A DNA stretch of 64,000 nt, taken from a virus. The stretch covers positions 11,506-75,505 of the IMG/VR virus record IMGVR_UViG_3300036791_001355; one strand, 5' to 3'. The notes beneath the pieces are model-generated. The model saw only the letters and a program-made list of their open reading frames with translations, did not search any database and was not told the origin of the DNA. Below are positions 1 to 12,742 of the stretch, piece after piece. The position numbers and the translations under genes were made by a program. Each line of letters opens with the position of its first letter. Positions within the stretch are counted from its first letter, which is position 1.

Positions 1-60
1 GCCGGCGCGGCGGACGAACTCCAGCAGGCTCTCGGTCCAGGCTGGATTGGCGCGCATGCC

Positions 61-309
61 TTAGTGGACCTGCACCACGCGCCACGCCATGCCATTCTTC
101 TTGAGGATGTTGTCCAGCATCCTCATGGCCTCATCGGGCTGTGTCTCCACCAGCGTACCCATCAGCGTGATGCCAATAGCGAAGCACGCCCGGTTGACGG
201 TGTGCTCGCCCTCGCAGCGCGTTTCGACATAGGTCCGCGTGGCGTCGGCGCAGTAGGTGATCATCCGCTCCATTTGCTCGCTCGCCTCGGCAAACTCGTC
301 CGGGGTCAT
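61..309 (-). CDS. hypothetical protein (82 aa)
   Basis: ATG preceded by GGGAGG; another ORF appears to start just after it and run off the window edge. Confidence 0.6.
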   Translation of the reverse strand: MTPDEFAEASEQMERMITYCADATRTYVETRCEGEHTVNRACFAIGITLMGTLVETQPDEAMRMLDNILKKNGMAWRVVQVH

Positions 310-671
310 GGCCAGCCTCCCATCAGCGTCCTTGGCCCGCTACGCCCGGTGCACGGCAGCTGCCATGCCTGCCGACACGGGGGACACAGGGCTATGTGTG
401 TCGCCGCGAACGCTGATGGAAGCTCGTACGGAATGCCAGTGCCTGCCATCCAGTGCCAATGGGGTGTTACGCTCCTATGAACTAGGTGCTAGGTGGGTGG
501 GCGTATCGCGCGTAACACAGCTGCCATCCAGTACCAGTGCGCCACCATGCGCCGGCATACCGCCAAAAATAATCTTGACTTCGGAAAAGTCACACTCGTA
601 GCGTCGTTTCGTCCGACACACTGTGTGCGAGACGTTTGCCGAAACTGTTCGGCAAAAAAGGATACGACGCG

Positions 672-1691
672 ATGGCAAAAACAAATCGCAGCCCGCAAGC
701 GACAATACCGCTGATTTCGCAGGGCGAACAGATGGTCGCGGCCATCCAGAATACCGCGAAAACCGCCACCCCCGAAGATCATGCTTTGCTTGCTGACTTG
801 CAGGCAAAATCCCGCAATCATGGCACTGCAGACACTTACGGGATGGAATTGGTTACTGCCACTCCCGGCTTTTGCGCATTGCTATTTCTCGATCAGGACC
901 ACAACCGCCCCTGGGACCCCAACTGGTCCAACGAAATCGGCCACCTGATGCGCAATGGAAAGTGGAAGCCAAACACCGATTCCTACGCGCTCTACGGCGA
1001 TGACGGAAAGCTCGGCAACGGCCAACATCGCACTGCTGCCCAGGCAGTTACCGGCTTCACATTCAAGGTTCCGTTCTTCCTGGGATTAAAGAAAGCCGAC
1101 ATCGGCGCAATCGACTGCGGCAAGCCGCGCACCGGAGTTGATCTCGCTGCCCTGTCCGGTATCAGCCGGGCCAAAGAAAAGGCAGGTATCCTCGCGGGCG
1201 TCTGGGGATGCCTTCAGGCTGCTGGGGAACTGGTCCGGCAGTATCGCTCACCGGACGATATCGCCATCGAAATCCAGCAGCACGACAAGATGCTCGCGCG
1301 CTCGTTGGAGATTGGTTACGTCTCTGTTGAGCATGCCACGACTCCGGTCCTGCCTCCCACGTTAGCGGCAAAACTGGCTGGGCTGCTCCTCTTCAAAGGC
1401 TGGCCGGAACGCCGCATGATCGACCGGCTGGACGAACTCCAGTGCGCTGATTTTGCTTCTGACAAAGCCCCGCTCGCAGTGGCCCGGCAGTACATCGCCT
1501 CGAACCGCAAGCCGGACGACACGCTCACGCCGCAGAAAGAACTGGCGGTGGCAGTGAAGGGATTCGTGCTCGCTGAGCAGGGTGCCGTCACCGCCAAGAA
1601 GGCCGAGCTGACCGTGGCCCGCCAGAGATTCCCGGACGCCTCCTATCCTGGCGTGGTACCGGCCGCTCCGACTGTCCAAGCCGCAGACTGA
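672..1691 (+). CDS. ParB/DGQHR-like N-terminal domain protein
   Basis: NRPW...WKPN...LGNGQHRTAA resembles the ParB-like LxDGQHRLxA motif; ATG at 672 follows AAAAGGA. Confidence 0.6.
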   Translation: MAKTNRSPQATIPLISQGEQMVAAIQNTAKTATPEDHALLADLQAKSRNHGTADTYGMELVTATPGFCALLFLDQDHNRPWDPNWSNEIGHLMRNGKWKPNTDSYALYGDDGKLGNGQHRTAAQAVTGFTFKVPFFLGLKKADIGAIDCGKPRTGVDLAALSGISRAKEKAGILAGVWGCLQAAGELVRQYRSPDDIAIEIQQHDKMLARSLEIGYVSVEHATTPVLPPTLAAKLAGLLLFKGWPERRMIDRLDELQCADFASDKAPLAVARQYIASNRKPDDTLTPQKELAVAVKGFVLAEQGAVTAKKAELTVARQRFPDASYPGVVPAAPTVQAAD

Positions 1692-1767
1692 TCCCGTTCG
1701 TGGATATGGGCCGTCCATGTCGCATTGATGGCGGCCCGGTCTGTGTCTTCGCGATGCGGGGGGGATC

Positions 1768-2673
1768 ATGCTCAACGTGGTAACGGAAGACGCGCGCTCC
1801 GAGGAAATCTCGTGGCGTTTGCTGCAATACGAACTGGCCGAGATCGAGCGAAACTATAGCGAGGCCCTGGAGCACTGGGTTCGGGTCGGTCACTACCTGC
1901 TGGATTTGCAAAGCAAGTATCCGCCGCACGGCGGCCAGTTCGGCCAAGCCTGCGCTCGACACGAGATAACCCTGACCGTCCAGCAACGGTCAGCGATGTG
2001 GTGGACGACGCTGGAAGACGATCAGCGGGCCACGCTGCGGGAGGAATCACCGGAGGCGCTGGAACCGGAGAGTCTGCAAAAGGCTTGCCGTAAATACCAT
2101 CCGGCATGGGCGAAGCGCAGCGAATCCTCAGTCTTCGGACGGTCCGAAGACTCAAAAACCAAACGCAAACGAGGGAAGAAGCCGATTCTCAAAGTCGCGG
2201 GAACCGAAGCCGATGAGGCAGAGCCGAAGCCCGAGAAACTGCCGCCGCGCCCCAAACCAACCGCACGCACGCCGAGTCAGTTGCGAGCGCAGCAATACAA
2301 AACCACGCCGCCGCAGCCACTACAACCGAAAGAGCAGTCTATCATCTGGTATGGCGTCCAGCTCTGGCCACCGGACCCGGCCAATGCACTGATGCACGGG
2401 GTCTACGACTATCGCCAGTGGTTTTGCGCCATCCGCGATTTCCGCAGCGTCACTGACCTGTTCGCCGACCGCTCCCCCCACAGCATCGCGCAAAACATGC
2501 GAACGCGGTGCAAGAAGTTCAAACTGATGTTCGCCGACGGATACTCTACCGACAAAGCCGAGGCACTGCGCGATTTGGTCGGCTGTCTCGACACCCTGAC
2601 AACGCTGATGGCAGTTAATCCCGAAGGCGAATGCCAAATTCCGGCTGACATCGTCCTGTTCAAGGGAACCTGA
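1768..2673 (+). CDS. DUF3102-like domain protein, probably DNA-binding
   Basis: N-terminal WVRVGHYLLDLQSKYPPHGGQFGQAC resembles the DUF3102 IGxxL...HGxFxxW pattern; basic/Pro linker. Confidence 0.5.
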   Translation: MLNVVTEDARSEEISWRLLQYELAEIERNYSEALEHWVRVGHYLLDLQSKYPPHGGQFGQACARHEITLTVQQRSAMWWTTLEDDQRATLREESPEALEPESLQKACRKYHPAWAKRSESSVFGRSEDSKTKRKRGKKPILKVAGTEADEAEPKPEKLPPRPKPTARTPSQLRAQQYKTTPPQPLQPKEQSIIWYGVQLWPPDPANALMHGVYDYRQWFCAIRDFRSVTDLFADRSPHSIAQNMRTRCKKFKLMFADGYSTDKAEALRDLVGCLDTLTTLMAVNPEGECQIPADIVLFKGT

Positions 2674-2696
2674 CGGCCAGCCAGCAGGAGAAGCCG

Positions 2697-3002
2697 ATGG
2701 ACACCCGCAACCGGATCACCATTCACGACGTGGCCGCTGACCTGGGCCTCGAACTGAGCCACGCCCAGGCATGGCGCATCGGCGATGCCGTCAAGCGCAT
2801 CCACCGCTGGGATACCGGCGAGCTGCCGGTCAAGGACAACCGCACCAAGAAGGCCGGCACCGGCAGCCACTGCTTCGCGCTCTATCCCGACACCGCCGAA
2901 TGGCGCGAGCGCATCGCCCGCCAGATCCGCACCGTCAGGGCCGAGGAGCCAACCACGCAGACCGACCTGTTTGCTACTCCCCCATCCCCGTCTTCTGCTT
3001 GA
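2697..3002 (+). CDS. hypothetical protein (101 aa)
   Basis: AGGAG RBS; 3' end overlaps the portal stop convergently. Confidence 0.6.
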   Translation: MDTRNRITIHDVAADLGLELSHAQAWRIGDAVKRIHRWDTGELPVKDNRTKKAGTGSHCFALYPDTAEWRERIARQIRTVRAEEPTTQTDLFATPPSPSSA

Positions 3003-4551
3003 ACGGCATCACCTTGGGCTGCTTCTGACCACCGCCGCCGGGAGGCCCACCACCACCGCCAGGAGGGCCGCCAGGGCCGCCACCCGCACCACCCGGCCCA
3101 CCACCACCGCCCATGCCCATGCCGCCCTGCATGGCCTGCTCCTGCTGCTCCTGCTGCTTGGCGCCAAACTCCGCCAAGGCCTCGGTGTCGAGCACCAGCG
3201 GCACGCCGAACAGCAACTCGGTGTCGGCGATGTTGTCGCAGGCCCAGTCCAGCACGCGCGCCTTGTTCTCCGGGTCCATGTTGGGCAGGAACGTCTCCAC
3301 CACGCCGATGATGGCCCGCAGCTTGACGTCGTCGGTCTTGACCCGCTCGCTCTCGGGCTCGATCAAGAGACTGGGCCACGAGGCGATGAAATCATTCTGC
3401 CACCGGCTCATGGCCGCCTCGTACGTCATCTTGCCGTACTGGTCCGGGTAGGTCTGCTGCATGCGCTGGAAGAACTCCCGGTTCCACGCCCGGTGCTGCA
3501 CGATGCGGTCGAGGAACTCGTAGGTCGGGTGCATCTCCTCGCGGAAGCGCTCGATATACCGCGCGATGTTCTTGGCATCCTCCGAGCCCTCGCCGAAGCC
3601 GGACACCAAAGTCTCGTTCTCCAGCAGCACCGCCGGCATGTCCGCCGCCGTGGCGAGGTTCTTGAGGATGTTGGTGCGCGCGAACGTCCCCGCCCCGTCG
3701 ATGTTCTGCATGTTCAGCGTCTCGATGTTTTCCTCCACGTCGATGCTGAGCACGTTGTCGGTCTGCGCCTGCTTCAAGAGCGAGCGCTTCATGCTGGCGA
3801 TGCCCACCATGACGCGGTCAATGATGCTGCCGGGGCTCTTCATCTTGGCGATCAGCACGCCCGCCTTGCGGGTGATCATGTCGTCGGTGCGCATCGATTG
3901 GATGAAGCTCTTGAGCGGGAACAGCGAGCGCTGATACACGCTCCGCCCGACATAGCCGAAGGCCGACGAGGTGAAAGCGATGTAGACCGGCTCCTCGTTC
4001 ATGATCACGCACACCCGCGAGCGGTGATAGGTCTGCCCCTGGGTGGTGATCACCGTGGTCTTCTGGAACTCGGGCGAGTTGGGATCTTGGCTGAGAATCA
4101 GCGACCCCGCCGTATTGAGCGGATCGAGCACGTTGAAATAGAGTTCTTCGTCGGCATAGCGCTCGGGCGGGATCACCTCGGTGGAGGGGATGCCCACGGC
4201 GCCGACGACGATGCTGGCGATGCCGTAGGCGCGAGCGAGACGGTGGCCGCTGTGGATGATGCGGTCGGCGTGAATCGCCCCCCACTGGCGCTCGAAGGCT
4301 TCGTGGACGTCGGGCGGCGCGCCCGCCACCTCGATCTTGCGTTTCTGCGACTGCGCCAGGGTGATCGGCGCCTCCACCATCTTCGCCCCCAGCGGGTGGT
4401 AGAGCAGGATGGTCTTGCACAGTTGGTAGCTGGGATCGGAGCCGGGCACGATGTCGTCGGCGGTGAGCATCTCTAAGAGCGCCGAACCCATGCTGGAGGT
4501 GCTGAGCGTGAGCATGGCGCCGGTCGGCTCGGGGCCTGAACTGCCTGACAT
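2974..4551 (-). CDS. portal protein (DUF1073 family)
   Basis: 525 aa; YHRSR, FGYVGRSVYQR, ATAADMPAVLL...GFGEG motifs; downstream of TerL; Gln/Gly/Pro-rich C-tail. Confidence 0.85.
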   Translation of the reverse strand: MSGSSGPEPTGAMLTLSTSSMGSALLEMLTADDIVPGSDPSYQLCKTILLYHPLGAKMVEAPITLAQSQKRKIEVAGAPPDVHEAFERQWGAIHADRIIHSGHRLARAYGIASIVVGAVGIPSTEVIPPERYADEELYFNVLDPLNTAGSLILSQDPNSPEFQKTTVITTQGQTYHRSRVCVIMNEEPVYIAFTSSAFGYVGRSVYQRSLFPLKSFIQSMRTDDMITRKAGVLIAKMKSPGSIIDRVMVGIASMKRSLLKQAQTDNVLSIDVEENIETLNMQNIDGAGTFARTNILKNLATAADMPAVLLENETLVSGFGEGSEDAKNIARYIERFREEMHPTYEFLDRIVQHRAWNREFFQRMQQTYPDQYGKMTYEAAMSRWQNDFIASWPSLLIEPESERVKTDDVKLRAIIGVVETFLPNMDPENKARVLDWACDNIADTELLFGVPLVLDTEALAEFGAKQQEQQEQAMQGGMGMGGGGGPGGAGGGPGGPPGGGGGPPGGGGQKQPKVMPFKQKTGMGE

Positions 4552-4708
4552 TCAGCACTCCTCGGAAGCCTTCGAGCGACCCTTTGAAAAAGCTCCGCGC
4601 GTCCTACGCCTTTGCACGGGGACGGGAGAGGGCGCGCGGAGAGGTGCATGGAAGAGGAACCCTGCACAGATGACCGCCTGCGCACACGCGGATGCGCGCC
4701 AGGAGTCC

Positions 4709-7427: not shown

Positions 7428-8765
7428 TCAGAAGCCTTTGTTGTCGCCCAGCGCCATGGCCACGCCATAGGTGAAGCAGTCGAGCAGGTCATCGGCGCCT
7501 GAGTCCACGCCCACCCGATAGCCCACCACCTGGGCCAGCAGATGGTTCCGCGTCGTCGCCTTGTAGGTGATCACCCGGTCATAGGCGGGCTGGCTGATTT
7601 TCACCTTGCCCTGGTGCACGTAGCCGCTGACGTTGATGGCCCGCCCGTCCTTGCCCACCTTGGTCAGGTCGCTCTCGATAGGGTGCGCCCGCCAGCCGCG
7701 CCGCCGCGCCTGCTGCAGCAGGATAGTGCCGCTGTTCTTGTCCTCGATCCACGCCCCCAGGGCGCCCATGCGCGCCCGGCACTGCTTGGCCAGTTCCTCC
7801 ATGCGCTGATAGATGCCCGGCAGCCACTGCTCCAGCAGGCTGCCCTCGATCTGCACAATGTCCCAGTCGAGGATGAGCAGCGGAATGCCGAAATGACGTG
7901 ACACGCCCCAGTAGATGACGGCGGTGCCGTCGTGCTCGCTGTGGTCCTTCACGGCGGTGTCGATGGTGACGAAGATGCCATCGCAGATGGCGGGGTAGGC
8001 GGGCGCCTTGTTGTCGACCAAGAGCGAGGTCTGGGCAAAGAAGGCCGCGCCCGACCAGTCGACGAACTTGGCCTCGTACTCCTGCTCGAACACCAGCGGG
8101 TGAGTGCGCGCGCGTAAGGCCTCGATCTCGTCCTGCGGCAAATAGGGGTTATTGGCCGAGGGCGCCCAGTACTCGACAAAGCCCCACTCCTCGGGCTCAT
8201 TGCACAGGCGCCAGAAGAAGTTCTCGCTATCCAGCCCGTTGGTGTTGGAGGCGGCCAGCGCGGTGCCTTTGTAATCCAGCAGGGTCGGCTCGATGCTCTT
8301 GCGCCAGACATCGGTCATGAACGGCTTGCAGAAGGCCGCCTCGTCGACGATCACCTTGTGGTAGCGGCGGCTTCTGCCGGCGCGCTCGTTATCCAAGCTC
8401 CAGAAGTCAATCCTGCCCCCGGTCGTGGTGCGAATCACCCCGTCCATGCGGTTGGAGCGCAAGATGACCGGGCCGAGGCGCTCGACCACATCGGTGTAGG
8501 CCTCGGAGAGGAATTTATACTCCGGGGCAAACCAGCCGACGTACTCGCCGCGTATGGCGGCATCGCAGGCGATGGTCTCGCACAGCAGCGTCTTGCCCCA
8601 GCGCCGGCCGCAGCGGATCGCCTTGTGCCGCCCGGGCATGCGATAGGCCTTGAGTTGGTCGGCATGGAGCGTGGGCAGTTCCACCTCGACCTCGCGGGCA
8701 CTGTCGGGGCCGCGCCTGGGCGGCAGGTGTACGCGCTGCTCACTCTGCGGGTGGGTCTGCTCCAT
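7428..8765 (-). CDS. terL: terminase large subunit
   Basis: Walker A CGRRWGKT, Walker B VIVDEAA, FEQEYEAKF, nuclease acidic motifs IDTA, IEDK, DDLLD. Confidence 0.93.
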   Translation of the reverse strand: MEQTHPQSEQRVHLPPRRGPDSAREVEVELPTLHADQLKAYRMPGRHKAIRCGRRWGKTLLCETIACDAAIRGEYVGWFAPEYKFLSEAYTDVVERLGPVILRSNRMDGVIRTTTGGRIDFWSLDNERAGRSRRYHKVIVDEAAFCKPFMTDVWRKSIEPTLLDYKGTALAASNTNGLDSENFFWRLCNEPEEWGFVEYWAPSANNPYLPQDEIEALRARTHPLVFEQEYEAKFVDWSGAAFFAQTSLLVDNKAPAYPAICDGIFVTIDTAVKDHSEHDGTAVIYWGVSRHFGIPLLILDWDIVQIEGSLLEQWLPGIYQRMEELAKQCRARMGALGAWIEDKNSGTILLQQARRRGWRAHPIESDLTKVGKDGRAINVSGYVHQGKVKISQPAYDRVITYKATTRNHLLAQVVGYRVGVDSGADDLLDCFTYGVAMALGDNKGF

Positions 8766-9297
8766 CCGGCTCCCTGTGGTCGCTCGAAGGCTCGCTCCCG
8801 TGGTCCTCGCCGTTGGGTTCCGGCTTGGCGTCGATCACCTGCGGCAGGCCGCCCCGGATCAGGATAGTGGTGCCGCCGCCGTTGGCGTAGGTCTCGTCAT
8901 CCCGTGGCGGGCGCCACTCCGGGCCACCCTTGCAGAAGAGCCAGTATTTCTGCGCCGCCACGTTGCCGCCGAGGGCGGAGCGCACGACAGCGGTGGAGAT
9001 GCGGGCCTTGACCTCATCGAAGGCGTTGGCGAGGTCGCGGTGATAGTGCCGTTCAAGGCTCTGCTCGGTGATGCCCATGACAAGAGCGATGATGCGGTTG
9101 GTATTGCCGTTGGCGCGGAGGACTTGAACGGCGCGACGCTGTTCGTCGGTAGGTTTGAACTTCTTGCGTCCAGCGTTTTTACGAGCCCCGCCTGAATTAG
9201 CTCGTGGGCCACCGCGTCTCGATTTGGGTTTGGCAGGCGGGACGGGCTCGAACTCTGGCAGTACGGGTTGAATAGGCTCGTCGTCGCCGTCGGCCAT
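8740..9297 (-). CDS. terS: terminase small subunit
   Basis: RGGPRANSGGARKNAGRK then an HTH-like segment, GNVAAQKYWL; directly upstream of TerL. Confidence 0.8.
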   Translation of the reverse strand: MADGDDEPIQPVLPEFEPVPPAKPKSRRGGPRANSGGARKNAGRKKFKPTDEQRRAVQVLRANGNTNRIIALVMGITEQSLERHYHRDLANAFDEVKARISTAVVRSALGGNVAAQKYWLFCKGGPEWRPPRDDETYANGGGTTILIRGGLPQVIDAKPEPNGEDHGSEPSSDHREPDGADPPAE

Positions 9298-9382: not shown

Positions 9383-9571
9383 TTAGCGCGGCCAATGGGT
9401 GAGGAGCCAGATGATGGCAGCGCCGAGGGCGAGGGTGGCGGCGGAGAGGCCGAGCATGGCGCCGGTCATGGTGCCGTTTCCCTGGTCGAAATAGGTCATG
9501 ACGAAGAGCAGCAGGATGATGAGCAGGATGATGGCCAGGGAGCCCCATCCTGCGGCATCCAGGCCGCTCAG
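9383..9571 (-). CDS. small two-TM membrane protein (absent from ORF track; start uncertain)
   Basis: hand translation ...WGSLAIILLIILLLFVMTYFDQGNGTMTGAMLGLSAATLALGAAIIWLLTHWPR*; a CTG overlaps the MTase stop. Confidence 0.45.
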   Translation of the reverse strand: MSGLDAAGWGSLAIILLIILLLFVMTYFDQGNGTMTGAMLGLSAATLALGAAIIWLLTHWPR

Positions 9572-11124
9572 GGGTGTGGGCCTGTGGCGACATAGGCGAA
9601 CAGCGGGAGGTCGTCCTCGACGCGCTGCTTGGCCATGGCGCAGTAGGTGGGGTTGAGGTCGATGCCGATGGCGTGGCGCTGGAGTCTATCGGCGGCGAGG
9701 AGGGTGGTACCGGCGCCTGAGAAGCAATCTAAAACTACACAGGGAACCGGAGCAGGAGTTGTCCACTCCATGCGTGATCCACAGTGTGGGCATTGCCGCG
9801 CATCGGAAACGTCCTCTGACAATGAGGGCAGGTCACAATGTAGACGGGCCTCTTTGCCCCGTCGTGCTGTCTCTTTTCCATCAGTTCCAGATTGCTGAGG
9901 CGATTGTCGAGCCTGTTGCCATTCTTGTGGTGGACCACCTCGGCCGAGGTCAGAAGCCTGCCCAGCTTCTTCTCCATAACCAGCCGATGCTCCATCACGT
10001 AGCCATCGCCCGTTGCATTCGGATGGCCCTTCCGAAGAAGCATCCGGTAACCCTTTGAGGTTACTGTCCACCCCTTCGTTGTGGAGCGATTGGCCGCTGT
10101 CCACCTTTGAGCACAAAGCCTCGAACAGCATTTCTGCCTGCTGGCCACTGGCTGAAACAGGATCGCGCATTGGCTGCATTTGATCGGCTGAAGAATGCGT
10201 CGTCCTGGCATCCTTATGGTCTAGCACGGCCTCACATTTGACACACCGGTATTCATGGCATGGGCAGGCGGGTGTCCAGCCGGTGGTGAGGCGTTGTATG
10301 GGCTCGTTGTAGGCGTTGCCTGCGGTGCCGCGTGAGTGCCGTGCCTCTTGCTTTGGTCCCATCCAGTGATCGTGGCGGCGGTAGGTGATTTCGCTCTGGC
10401 GTATCCATGGGGCACCGCACTGGGCACAGCAGCCGTGCTCGGAGGTTCCGGCCTTGATGCATCGCTCGGCCAGTTCGGGCGGCATGGTGGCGAAGTGAGC
10501 GGCGCTATAGGAGGTGGTGGCGATGGTCCACACGTTGCGGGCGTTGGCGCCCAGAGGATTGAGGGTGACCATGGCGTCCTTGCCGCCCAGGGCGATGCGG
10601 GCGCCGCGCTCGCCGGTCATGGTGTGGCTGAAGCCGTTCACCGGGGAGCGGGCGCGCTCGATGCTATTGGCTTGGTGCGGCTCGCGGATGGCGTCGGCGT
10701 CGTAGAAATATCTGGGCTGTTTGGTGAGCAGGAAGATGTGCTCGTGGGCTGAGGTCGGGCGGTCGGTGATGGATTCCGGCATGGGATTCGGTTTGCACCA
10801 GATGATGTCCGAGCGCAGGTACCACCCGTCCGCTTGGAGCGCGAGGGCGACGCGGGCGGGCATTAGCTGCAGCTGCTTGTTGGTGTGGCCGTCGCCCAGG
10901 TTCAGCCACAAGGTGCCATCGGGGCGGAGAATGCGGCGCACCTCGCGGAAGACCGCGACCAGGGTGGTGATATAGGCCTCTGGCGTAGCTTCCAAGCCGA
11001 TCTGGGCGGCCATGCCATAGTTCCTGTGCCCGTAGTAAGGGGGGCTGGTGACACAGCTGTGGACGCTGCTTGCGGGCAGGGTGGGCAGGATGGTGCGGCA
11101 GTCGCCTTGCAGCAGGCGATTCAC
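9568..11124 (-). CDS. DNA methyltransferase, N4-cytosine/N6-adenine (beta-type order), with large in-frame insertion
   Basis: TSPPY catalytic motif, [44 protein letters not shown] motif; GTG start at 11124. Confidence 0.9.
9735..10211 (-). CDS. HNH homing endonuclease nested in an alternative frame of the methyltransferase
   Basis: CxxC...[42 protein letters not shown] (HNH_3-type), C-terminal CPHC. Confidence 0.85.
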
Positions 11125-11177
11125 AGGAGCGAGATTTCGAGCGACCCTCGCTGCGAGAGCGAGGCTTCGAGCAACCC
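11124..11177 (-). repeat. dimer of the 24-nt element joined by CAGCG
   Basis: minus strand GGGTTGCTCGAAGCCTCGCTCTCG-CAGCG-AGGGTCGCTCGAAATCTCGCTCCTG; fills the gap before the MTase. Confidence 0.85.
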
Positions 11178-11180
11178 CAC

Positions 11181-11468
11181 CTACGCGACCTGACGGGTGA
11201 CGCGCCCCGGTGGGTTGTCGATCAGGCTCAGCCACTGAGAGACGGCGGGCGTGCCGTGCAGGCGGTCAAGGCCGCGCAGCCAGGAGGCCAGGGCAGCGTC
11301 GATGGGTTCACGGCCGCGCAGCTGCTTGCGGGTGAAGCTGTCGTCGCGCTGCGCCATTTGCCACAATAACGTCTGGGACCAGCCGAGACGGGTGAGGATG
11401 GCGCGGGCTTCGTCGGGGGTCATGATCATGGGGGTCATGGCGTGATCCCATAGCATCGGGAGAGGCAT
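11181..11468 (-). CDS. small HTH-like protein
   Basis: MTPDEARAILTRLGWSQTLL...GREPI pattern; start uncertain. Confidence 0.5.
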   Translation of the reverse strand: MPLPMLWDHAMTPMIMTPDEARAILTRLGWSQTLLWQMAQRDDSFTRKQLRGREPIDAALASWLRGLDRLHGTPAVSQWLSLIDNPPGRVTRQVA

Positions 11469-11499: not shown

Positions 11500-12636
11500 T
11501 CAGGCTGCCAGTCCGGGTGCGAAGCTTTGAGCACCCCTCAGCGGGTCGCCCTTGTGGGTGGCGATGGCCTGCCACTCGTGCGGGGACAACTCGATGATCT
11601 GGCCACCCATCTTCTCGAACTCCGACGCCCGGTCGTAGGCGGGGAGGTCTTCGGCGGTGCGGGTGATGGCGTTGAACAAGCCATAGCGGGTCAGGCTGGC
11701 GCCCTCGATGAGGTGGCGCAGGACGCTGGAGCGCTCGCCGTCGTTCATGCCGAACCGCTTGGCCGTGAACTCGACCACCTTGACCGGGTCCGCCTCGATC
11801 TTCTCGGCCACGGTGCCGGTGATCTGGTCGATGCGGGCGGCGAAGCGAGCCTCGTCGAAAGCCCCCTTCACGACGTCGCGTACCTGCGACCAGATGGCCG
11901 CGTCGGTCAGCCTCTTGGTCTCGTCGGACAGCAACTCCATGATGCTATCGGTGGACACCAGTTCGTGGCGGGCACCGACGTGACGGCGCTTCATGCCCTC
12001 GTTGGCAAACACGGCCAAGTTCGTGCAGGCCCGCGTCCACACCCCGGTTTCGACCGAGAGGCTGCCGGCACCGACTTCCGAGTTGGAGATGACGATGGCG
12101 GGCACGCAGGTGTCGAAGATGGTGTGGCTGCCGTCACCCATGCGGCCGCCCTTGGGGATATCGCGGTTGATGCGGTGGTCGCACGCCTTGAGGTAGAGCT
12201 TGCGCTCGGTAATCTCGCAACTGATGACCTCCAGCTGGCAATCAGCCAGCACGGGCAGGATGGCCTCGGCGAGGTCCAAGTTTTCCAACGGCCGGTACTT
12301 GTCGGAGAGGAAAGCGCGGGTGACGCCGTCCATGGTGCGGACGAGGCGCTTGTCGTCAGTCTTGAGCCACGTATTGACGTTGTGGGCCAGCAGGTCCGGG
12401 TTGGTGGTGCGGCAGCGGTCGTAGTACTTGGTCGGGATGCCGGTGTAGACACCGATCTGGTCGTGGGCGATCTCATTGATGCCGAAGATGTTGGCGGAGC
12501 CGCCTACCATGAGGCGAGGCTCCTGACCCCACACGCCCATCTCGATGGCGGTGGCGGGGGCGACGAGGTCACGCTTGGCGTTGGCCTGCCGCTCGATTTC
12601 GGCGGCGAGTTCGGAAATAGAGCGTCCGACTTTCAT
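11500..12636 (-). CDS. DUF932-family protein
   Basis: RAFLSDKYRPLEN, ISNSEVGAGSL, CTNL, RRHVG, LFNAITRTA; start at ATG 12636 after the leader cassette. Confidence 0.8.
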   Translation of the reverse strand: MKVGRSISELAAEIERQANAKRDLVAPATAIEMGVWGQEPRLMVGGSANIFGINEIAHDQIGVYTGIPTKYYDRCRTTNPDLLAHNVNTWLKTDDKRLVRTMDGVTRAFLSDKYRPLENLDLAEAILPVLADCQLEVISCEITERKLYLKACDHRINRDIPKGGRMGDGSHTIFDTCVPAIVISNSEVGAGSLSVETGVWTRACTNLAVFANEGMKRRHVGARHELVSTDSIMELLSDETKRLTDAAIWSQVRDVVKGAFDEARFAARIDQITGTVAEKIEADPVKVVEFTAKRFGMNDGERSSVLRHLIEGASLTRYGLFNAITRTAEDLPAYDRASEFEKMGGQIIELSPHEWQAIATHKGDPLRGAQSFAPGLAA

Positions 12637-12742
12637 AGGGATACCCCTTTCTGGGTAAGCGCTGGGGCGGGATTGCCCTCTGGCCGGTCCCTGTGTAGCC
12701 GGTATGGTGTGGCGATGCAAGTGGAATATTTGCGCGTTTAGG
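12637..12742 (-). promoter_or_regulatory. early promoter/leader cassette P1
   Basis: GCAAATATT box, TTGCAT-17bp-TACACA, hairpin GGGC-AATCCC-GCCC, AGGG-GTAT-CCCT before ATG. Confidence 0.7.

Follow-up and report, generated by a model that had tools for sequence, protein, structure and literature searches.

How can a gene be interrupted by the coding sequence of an endonuclease, set in another reading frame and accompanied by no recognisable intron or intein, and still be read as one continuous protein? This question is raised by a DNA methyltransferase (methylase) gene in the IMG/VR virus record IMGVR_UViG_3300036791_001355, of which positions 11,506 to 75,505, a stretch of 64,000 nucleotides (nt) referred to here as the window, were analysed. 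The earlier view was that a homing endonuclease gene requires an intron, an intein or a position between genes if its host is to be spared, and a report on the ShiLan domain in 2025 described one mycobacteriophage exception (PMC11855218). The initial annotation of this locus named introns, inteins and intergenic positions as the usual ways in which such genes spare their hosts, a statement that is out of date, as splicing-free out-of-frame HNH endonucleases have been published (PMC9957025; PMC11855218). The layout of a hidden HNH gene was thus described in 2023 and 2025, and the window holds a distinct and widespread variant of it. Its methylase frame runs open through an insert that encodes a complete HNH endonuclease in the +1 frame, and both ends of the insert encode, in the methylase frame, a pair of cysteines. 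A hidden HNH gene with a selected read-through of its host frame is very probably what the locus contains, and the fuller explanation, in which the cysteine pairs clasp the ends of the resulting passenger loop, is on the whole probable. The features discussed are as follows, all on the minus strand of the window.

9568-11124, minus: DNA methyltransferase gene, beta-class N6A/N4C (PF01555), with a continuous frame through the insert
9748-10257, minus: insert of 510 nt (170 host codons, approximately residues 327-496), without counterpart in the insert-free homologues P0010, P0016 and P0018
9735-10211, minus: hidden HNH endonuclease open reading frame (ORF), 158 amino acids plus TAG, +1 frame (Pfam, PHROGs and AlphaFold2)
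9882-9992, minus: HNH catalytic core, EHRLVM .. HHKNG .. DNR .. SNLEL, recognised by its conserved residues
10234-10245, minus: 5' putative zinc knuckle of the host frame, CVKC, upstream of the HNH start with a TAG of the HNH frame between them
9781-9792, minus: 3' putative zinc knuckle of the host frame, CPHC, overlapping the non-conserved tail of the HNH ORF
9703-9738, minus: methylase motif I, the AdoMet (S-adenosylmethionine)-binding loop, intact and directly after the insert
10258-10431, minus: the methylase's own cysteine site, CCAQC (10417-10431) and CPC (10258-10266), from homologue alignments
11035-11046, minus: catalytic motif IV, SPPY, kept in the 14- and 44-sequence homologue alignments

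The methylase ORF is open up to a GTG at 11235 (9568-11235, minus strand, 555 amino acids). Its true start is likely the GTG at 11124, since the N-termini of homologues lie there and the database copy of the protein, P0001, has 518 amino acids. In Pfam the ORF matches PF01555 (N6_N4_Mtase; E = 3.6e-44, 151.8 bits), with the match split into residues 58-267 and approximately 499-543. As the initial annotation had noticed, the frame is free of stops from motif IV to motif I and carries about 170 codons too many; alignment with P0010, P0016 and P0018 places these extra residues between GWxPxCxC and VPxxVLD, where the three homologues lack them. The base composition of the insert sets it apart as well: its G+C (GC) content is 0.563, compared with 0.648 for the whole window and with 0.659 and 0.639 for the two parts of the methylase. 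In the host frame the insert ends ..TTPAP and is followed by VPC.

The same DNA is dual coding, and every observation made on it in the initial annotation proved correct. The HNH codons begin one base after the methylase codons [(11235-10211) mod 3 = 1], the HNH stop TAG (9735-9737) falls within methylase codons C499-V500-V501 of PCVVLD, where it is built from the V500 and V501 codons, and all but about 45 nt of the insert belongs to the HNH ORF. The third frame of the same strand has five stops across this ORF. The 158-residue product, already called a complete HNH protein in the initial annotation, matches PF13392 (HNH_3) with E = 2.9e-13 and 49.7 bits against a gathering cut-off of 24.8, and the HNH endonuclease family phrog_20891 with E = 4e-23. 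It comprises an N-terminal CxxC..CCxxxC finger, the HNH core and a C-terminal CPHC..HxxxH finger, and the catalytic His and Asn residues H75, H95, N103 and N107 are invariant in 26 relatives. The AlphaFold2 model is confident, with a mean predicted local distance difference test score (pLDDT) of 86.6. When it was compared with 48,161 chains using VIA-align, the top match was I-HmuI (1u3e; Z 6.4, root-mean-square deviation 3.1 A over 69 residues), followed by I-PpoI and further HNH enzymes, and its N-terminal part was found similar to small zinc fingers. A Foldseek search of the PDB with this model returned nothing at E <= 0.001; I-HmuI again ranked first, at a weak E of 0.26. The N-terminal CxxC..C..C finger occurs once in the window (10113-10178) and in relatives L096 and L100, twice in L174 (2381-2600) and in most protein-only homologues, and three times in L002 (2770-3000), the host frame remaining in phase each time.

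Among the best 120 protein matches of the methylase, at least 15 diverged methylases (38-57% identical) share the insert with an open frame, and insert-free ones, P0010, P0016 and P0018, occur there too. Carrier DNA was gathered from viral, metagenome and genome collections by HNH protein similarity alone, an ascertainment that is blind to the host frame. Fourteen carriers entered the full analysis (the window, L002, L015, L018, L094-L102 and L106); L166 and L118 are truncated where their contigs stop, and a further carrier, L174, which comes from a metagenome-assembled genome (MAG) of a Steroidobacteraceae, was added afterwards. Every locus whose HNH scores at least 140 bits against the family profile is nested in the +1 frame of a longer ORF on the same strand, and loci that score less than about 130 bits hold the HNH as a free-standing gene. 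Host-frame stops, whose frequent occurrence in homologous inserts the initial annotation had named as a refutation, number zero in all 14 carriers, those of 39-48% GC included, and the third frame contains 5-17. Shuffling synonymous codons of the HNH ORFs gave 2.8-10.5 expected host-frame stops, with a probability of an open frame of <2e-4 to 0.035 per locus; for the window none of 5000 shuffles left the methylase frame open (mean 6.3 stops). Free-standing HNH relatives are never open in the equivalent frame (0 of 74) and average ten stops per 100 codons. Because no stop occurs in any carrier against this expectation and none of the free-standing relatives is open, the methylase frame across the insert is kept open by selection, which, as far as sequence analysis can show, supports the splicing-free strategy suggested in the initial annotation.

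Both frames leave their mark on the sequence. Differences among the window, L002 and L174 concentrate at the third codon position of the HNH, and in pairs of these three the changes that are synonymous for the HNH and nonsynonymous for the host number 56-64 versus 21-35 of the reverse kind (approximately 2-2.7 to 1). Across the centre of the insert in the 14 carriers, mean pairwise identity is higher in the HNH frame (up to 0.75, versus 0.40 for the host frame), whereas at the two ends the host frame exceeds the HNH frame (0.33 versus 0.17 and 0.39 versus 0.20), and it is ahead only there. The hydrophobicity of the host-frame product is below the shuffle mean in 14 of 14 carriers, an effect of just 1-3 percentage points, with Kyte-Doolittle means that are not consistently lower. 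Judged from these sequences, the middle of the host-frame product is a hydrophilic passenger that is free to vary.

The ends of the insert are different. A CxxC pair stands in the host frame at both ends in all 14 carriers, as the initial annotation had read for the window, the 3' pair of L018 being CxC, and the four cysteines (C4, C7, C155 and C158 of the insert alignment; C331, C334, C482 and C485 in the window protein) together with one Gln are the sole invariant host-frame columns when the 14 inserts are aligned. The 5' pair never lies within the HNH ORF: it is found 10-67 nt upstream of the start, at 25 or 34 nt in ten of the 14, usually with a TAG of the HNH frame in between. The 3' pair lies 12-20 residues ahead of motif I, in the last 7-20 HNH codons, where the sequence and length of the HNH frame vary, and in L018 and L106 it follows the HNH stop. 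In L174 and P0004 the host frame reads CPDC, and in L174 the overlapping His of the HNH frame is replaced by Arg. The cysteine pairs are therefore invariant outside the conserved HNH coding sequence. Many of the knuckles have the form CPxCG. This form is the classical zinc-knuckle consensus. The pairs occur in three methylase subtypes with unrelated upstream sequence (GWxPxCxC.., ..LVRLVTPP.. and ..MCPPY..) and in the non-methylase ORF L018, and insert-free members of two methylase subtypes lack them, a distribution that argues for pairs that travel with the element. They are distinct from the methylase's own CCAQC/CPC site, which exists in insert-free homologues too and right behind whose CPC the insert begins; of this site C270, C273 and C324 never vary among 14 homologues and C326 hardly does, and the same four cysteines (C233, C236, C287 and C289 in the 44-sequence alignment) are again invariant or nearly so.

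An AlphaFold2 model of the methylase built with 44 homologues has a confident core that matches M.BceJIV (8urk), TTHA0409, CcrM, M.RsrI and M.PvuII (Foldseek E 2e-11 to 3e-9). The 5' knuckle forms a hairpin (model residues 290-304, pLDDT approximately 91; strands 290-294 and 300-304), a stretch of 124 residues (310-433) falls below pLDDT 50, and the 3' knuckle and its strand (residues 441-460, pLDDT 86-92; strand 451-455) run into motif I. This is how a split zinc ribbon around a disordered loop would be expected to look. The proposal of the initial annotation that the two CxxC halves make one zinc site and loop the passenger out of the enzyme is thus supported as far as sequence analysis reaches, for the pairs are the most conserved feature of the host frame and the hairpins that flank the disordered loop are confident, while the zinc itself is what we infer. 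That the two knuckles together form a zinc clasp appears somewhat favoured. A complex prediction with the two knuckle peptides (31 residues each) and zinc gave a score of 0.13 (mark 0.32), which is evidence neither way.

The element has spread widely. Twelve clasped elements, that of the window among them, form one clade in a tree built from 153 HNH sequences [Shimodaira-Hasegawa-like approximate likelihood ratio test (SH-aLRT) 99]. This clade mixes three methylase subtypes; L096, in a Mantra-type methylase of 39% GC, groups with the window and L002. L018, L106, L166 and L118 fall outside this clade, and the present tree neither establishes nor rules out a single origin of the clasped elements. 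When the host-frame insert was used as a profile, it matched 429 representatives of clusters at 50% identity with E <= 1e-3 (236 at 1e-10 and 56 at 1e-30). Most matches span the whole insert in proteins of 400-900 amino acids, and of the 150 best, at least 113 have both knuckles and motif I. No match came from scanning viral sequences with the host-frame insert of the window alone as query. Searching 50,697 deposited phage genomes with the insert (blastn) and with the host-frame peptide (tblastn) likewise gave no match, to which a low-complexity filter possibly contributed, and so yielded no cultured phage with the clasped variant. The closest organism-labelled relative is the Steroidobacteraceae MAG (L174), whose HNH is 73% identical and whose affiliation fits the 65% GC of the window. 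The host need not be a methylase: in L018 (ORF 1981-3168) a clasped hidden HNH at 2324-2890 is bracketed in the host frame by KCSRCG .. RCSCGSG, and the one weak match of this ORF is to DNA_pol_B_thumb (E = 0.045), so that the arrangement is not confined to methylase genes.

We propose that a mobile hidden HNH element, with a length that is a multiple of three, would have entered immediately 5' of the sequence that codes for motif I (VLDxFxGxGTT), the region 9703-9738 being the likely homing-site region. The centre of the element encodes an I-HmuI-like HNH nuclease in the +1 frame, and selection acting on synonymous HNH codons keeps the methylase frame clear of stops, so that the ribosome would read through the methylase and add a hydrophilic, disordered passenger loop of approximately 125 residues. 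The ends of the element would be coded for the host frame, each giving a CxxC knuckle on a beta-hairpin, and the two knuckles, most likely by binding one zinc ion, would form a zinc-ribbon-like clasp. Such a clasp would tie the ends of the loop together beside the methylase's own cysteine site and allow the Rossmann fold still to close. The full-length, insert-bearing methylase is presumably active. Translation of the nuclease presumably begins at a start within the same mRNA, and its cutting of insert-free alleles close to motif I would cause the element to be copied in; its expression, its site-specific cleavage and its homing are likewise presumed from the sequence. The balance tips slightly towards the broader view that the knuckles are part of the mobile element, a 'structural splice' whose zinc would join the ends of the passenger peptide and so let a homing-endonuclease gene reside in the core-coding region of an enzyme without RNA or protein splicing. 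To introns and inteins this would add a third general route to harmlessness, one that would be used in hundreds of methylase lineages and in at least one non-methylase gene.

In the window, the methylase gene is flanked by a DUF932/phrog_1362 gene (11500-12720) and by a putative small terminase gene (8740-9297), the latter with a weak match to phrog_309 (E = 2.7e-4), and a large terminase gene (7428-8765; Terminase_6N, E = 3.5e-4) follows the putative small terminase.

Several observations weigh against the explanation proposed here. The context of the HNH start in the window is poor for ribosome binding, with AAGG directly next to the ATG, and a decent Shine-Dalgarno motif precedes the HNH start in only about six of 14 relatives. 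With one finger where close relatives have two or three, the HNH of the window could be a weakened copy. The insert boundaries were set by protein alignment, with no empty site at the DNA level for them, and neither an insert-free allele nor any joints were found among contigs of the probable source DNA sample. Zinc binding and contact between the knuckles are putative. Splicing is excluded solely by the missing known motifs and by the needlessness of an open frame if the insert were spliced. Finally, the 431-residue homologue P0069 has, at approximately residues 320-357 and exactly at the insertion site, a cysteine-rich piece with two CxxCxGxG motifs (..RCITCEGTG..x17..CQGCKGNG..) and no HNH, which could be what remained of the element once the nuclease had been lost, or else a zinc module that some methylases own independently.

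The P0069 piece, together with the cysteine site that window-type methylases own immediately next to the insert, gives some weight to a reading in which the pairs are a small zinc ribbon of the methylases themselves before motif I, into whose loop an HNH gene was inserted, so that the clasp would be older than the insertion. We consider this unlikely, as P0010, P0016, P0018, Mantra gp64 and Cr-LKS3 g59, which are insert-free at this position and represent at least two host subtypes, have no such pairs, as the pairs accompany the HNH in three subtypes of unrelated upstream sequence and in L018, as the spacing between the first Cys and the HNH start hardly varies, regardless of host, and as the HNH tree does not track host subtype. 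A slightly less probable reading accepts the open frame and denies its benefit to the methylase: the frame would be kept open to avoid premature termination or polarity on downstream packaging genes, or for another fusion role, and the full-length methylase would be inactive. Phage methylases are often dispensable (PMC11855218), and in the window the methylase is followed immediately by a gene that weakly matches the small terminase and by the large terminase. Against this, each of the 13 carriers hosted by a methylase has an intact motif I and an intact C-terminal methylase part behind the insert (the fourteenth, L018, lies in a non-methylase ORF), the window protein retains every residue that is invariant in 44 homologues, conserved host-frame knuckles suit a folded product and not mere read-through, and the genes downstream vary among carriers.

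Two further readings are very improbable. The insert might be removed by unrecognised RNA or protein splicing, perhaps by way of its terminal cysteines; related HNHs do lie inside intein-like sequences of other methylases (L009; L015 515-1411, Hint_2, E = 5.6e-4), and non-canonical inteins with out-of-frame nucleases have been reported (bioRxiv 10.1101/2025.01.02.630785). Yet, in agreement with the initial annotation, which saw neither intein hallmarks nor a group I core, Pfam gave no Hint or intein domain at E <= 0.1, the insert does not start with Cys or Ser and does not end with His-Asn and a nucleophile, and AlphaFold2 places no folded domain between the knuckles. A covariance-model search of 9400-11400 with Rfam at E <= 10 gave three chance-level matches and no intron family of group I, group II or any other kind, and the approximately 45 nt outside the HNH ORF are too little for a ribozyme core. 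An open host frame would, moreover, be needless for RNA splicing, yet it is strongly selected. Just as scarcely credible is a domesticated phage nuclease, either a packaging HNH linked to the terminase or the partner of the methylase in a restriction-like module, in place of a homing element. The methylase gene stands directly upstream of the putative small and the large terminase genes in the window, and HNH proteins encoded beside terminases are known to act in packaging (PDB 5H0M type, cited in PMC11855218); however, fold and family are those of I-HmuI/HNH_3-like enzymes with extra zinc fingers as in homing enzymes, the downstream genes of relatives are not terminases, one and the same element clade occupies one site in methylase subtypes unrelated to each other, the hallmark of site-specific invasion, and the lower GC of the insert suggests a recent arrival. 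A programmed frameshift from the methylase into the HNH frame was also considered and rejected, as in most carriers the HNH frame has a TAG 6-15 nt ahead of its start. The mobile HNH element that keeps its host frame open and brings its own knuckles remains the reading that we prefer.

If it is true, the locus offers a clean natural case of long dual coding, over 150-230 codons, and a design principle for placing large passengers in enzymes. It would also serve as a warning to annotators, since such genes are now labelled as plain, over-long methyltransferases and the nuclease is missed. The lineage of the window is separate from ShiLan and much larger, with its 429 protein clusters, three methylase subtypes and GC contents from 39 to 65%; selection on both frames is measurable in it, and the element appears to bring the split zinc ribbon that makes its own insertion tolerable.

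Among known systems, the closest is the 'ShiLan domain', a hidden out-of-frame HNH in the mycobacteriophage DNA methylase gp65 (Gosselin et al., 2023, PMC9957025; Arsenault, Gosselin & Gogarten, 2025, PMC11855218). A tblastn search of deposited phages with the HNH of the window gave matches inside the methyltransferases Mantra gp64, Totinger gp66 and Cr-LKS3 g59, which like the window methylase belong to PF01555. In both types the insert is a multiple of three bases with no host-frame stop and contains a complete HNH in another frame of the same strand, beginning a few bases into the insert and stopping at its end; both have no intein or intron signature and a disjunct distribution over methylases, and in both the sequence behind the insert is similar to the insert's own beginning (..VLD and ..VLD in the window). 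With an insertion that close homologues lack, no host-frame stop, a complete HNH in another frame and related elements in divergent methylases, the window element is of the kind described in PMC11855218, but it is not of the ShiLan family proper, since it occupies another site (before motif I, versus a duplicated EPxVVARKP motif in ShiLan, Mantra and Cr-LKS3), its HNH is in the +1 frame (versus +2 in Mantra and Cr-LKS3), and this HNH is only about 36% identical to that of Mantra and falls in a separate clade. ShiLan-type inserts also have no host-frame CxxC pairs, and none are mentioned in PMC9957025 or PMC11855218; clasp-type host-frame cysteines were not found in the literature on hidden HNHs and are apparently unpublished. 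The published cases are from actinophages, whereas the family of the window comes from soil and other metagenomes and from the Steroidobacteraceae MAG. The ShiLan type itself reaches beyond actinophages: in Cylindrospermopsis phage Cr-LKS3 (L013, OM373202.1) a coding sequence at 1983-3833, annotated only as 'DNA methylase', contains a ShiLan-type hidden HNH at 2237-2989, at the EPxxxARKP site and in the +2 frame. A second published case, the HNH-like ORF hidden in the helicase-methylase Pacc40 gp60 (PMC11855218), likewise has an out-of-frame nuclease-like ORF in an in-frame methylase insertion with a disordered in-frame product, and, by its published description, differs in host family, site and nuclease.

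Other hidden nucleases were met among the relatives. The methylase ORF of L002 (1041-3677), the closest viral relative, has a second in-frame insert of approximately 155 residues (1972-2559, minus strand) whose opposite strand encodes a 196-residue PF01844 HNH (E = 2.7e-8); the host frame has no stops there and the other frames have 1-12, so that one methylase gene holds two hidden nucleases, one antisense and one sense. L102 (ORF 574-3180) has, besides the clasped one, a second hidden HNH at 1118-1747 between GSGFPKS and GTALKPAWEP, bracketed by the host-frame cysteines TCRC .. VCGGCG. L010 (78-2237) encodes a 720-residue PF01555 methylase with an in-frame LAGLIDADG and, further on, an out-of-frame (+2) HNH-like ORF at 1550-2050.

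Free-standing HNH_3/I-HmuI-like homing endonucleases, of which relatives are abundant, share PF13392, the catalytic residues and the fold with the hidden HNH; they differ in that the frame corresponding to the open one has approximately ten stops per 100 codons and in having no flanking host-frame knuckles. Intein-like arrangements with related HNHs in the +1 frame are seen at L009 2539-3273 (ORF 1908-4562) and at L015 515-1411 (ORF 1-3168), with a host frame that reads A/CLSDDTEVLTSDGW .. TLNHR .. VFVTGN/SGFPKS. Hint_2 is matched in L015 and nothing in L009, and the region of the intein nuclease domain is gibberish in frame; both host frames are kept open (shuffle P 0.037 for L009 and <3e-4 for L015). 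A survey of actinophage inteins reported out-of-frame EndoVII-like nucleases and HNHs only in-frame. With inteins and group I introns that carry homing endonucleases, the element of the window shares an endonuclease gene placed at a conserved site of a host gene that is not destroyed. It differs from them in having no splicing domain or ribozyme, and it is rendered harmless by dual coding and a probable zinc clasp and not by removal.

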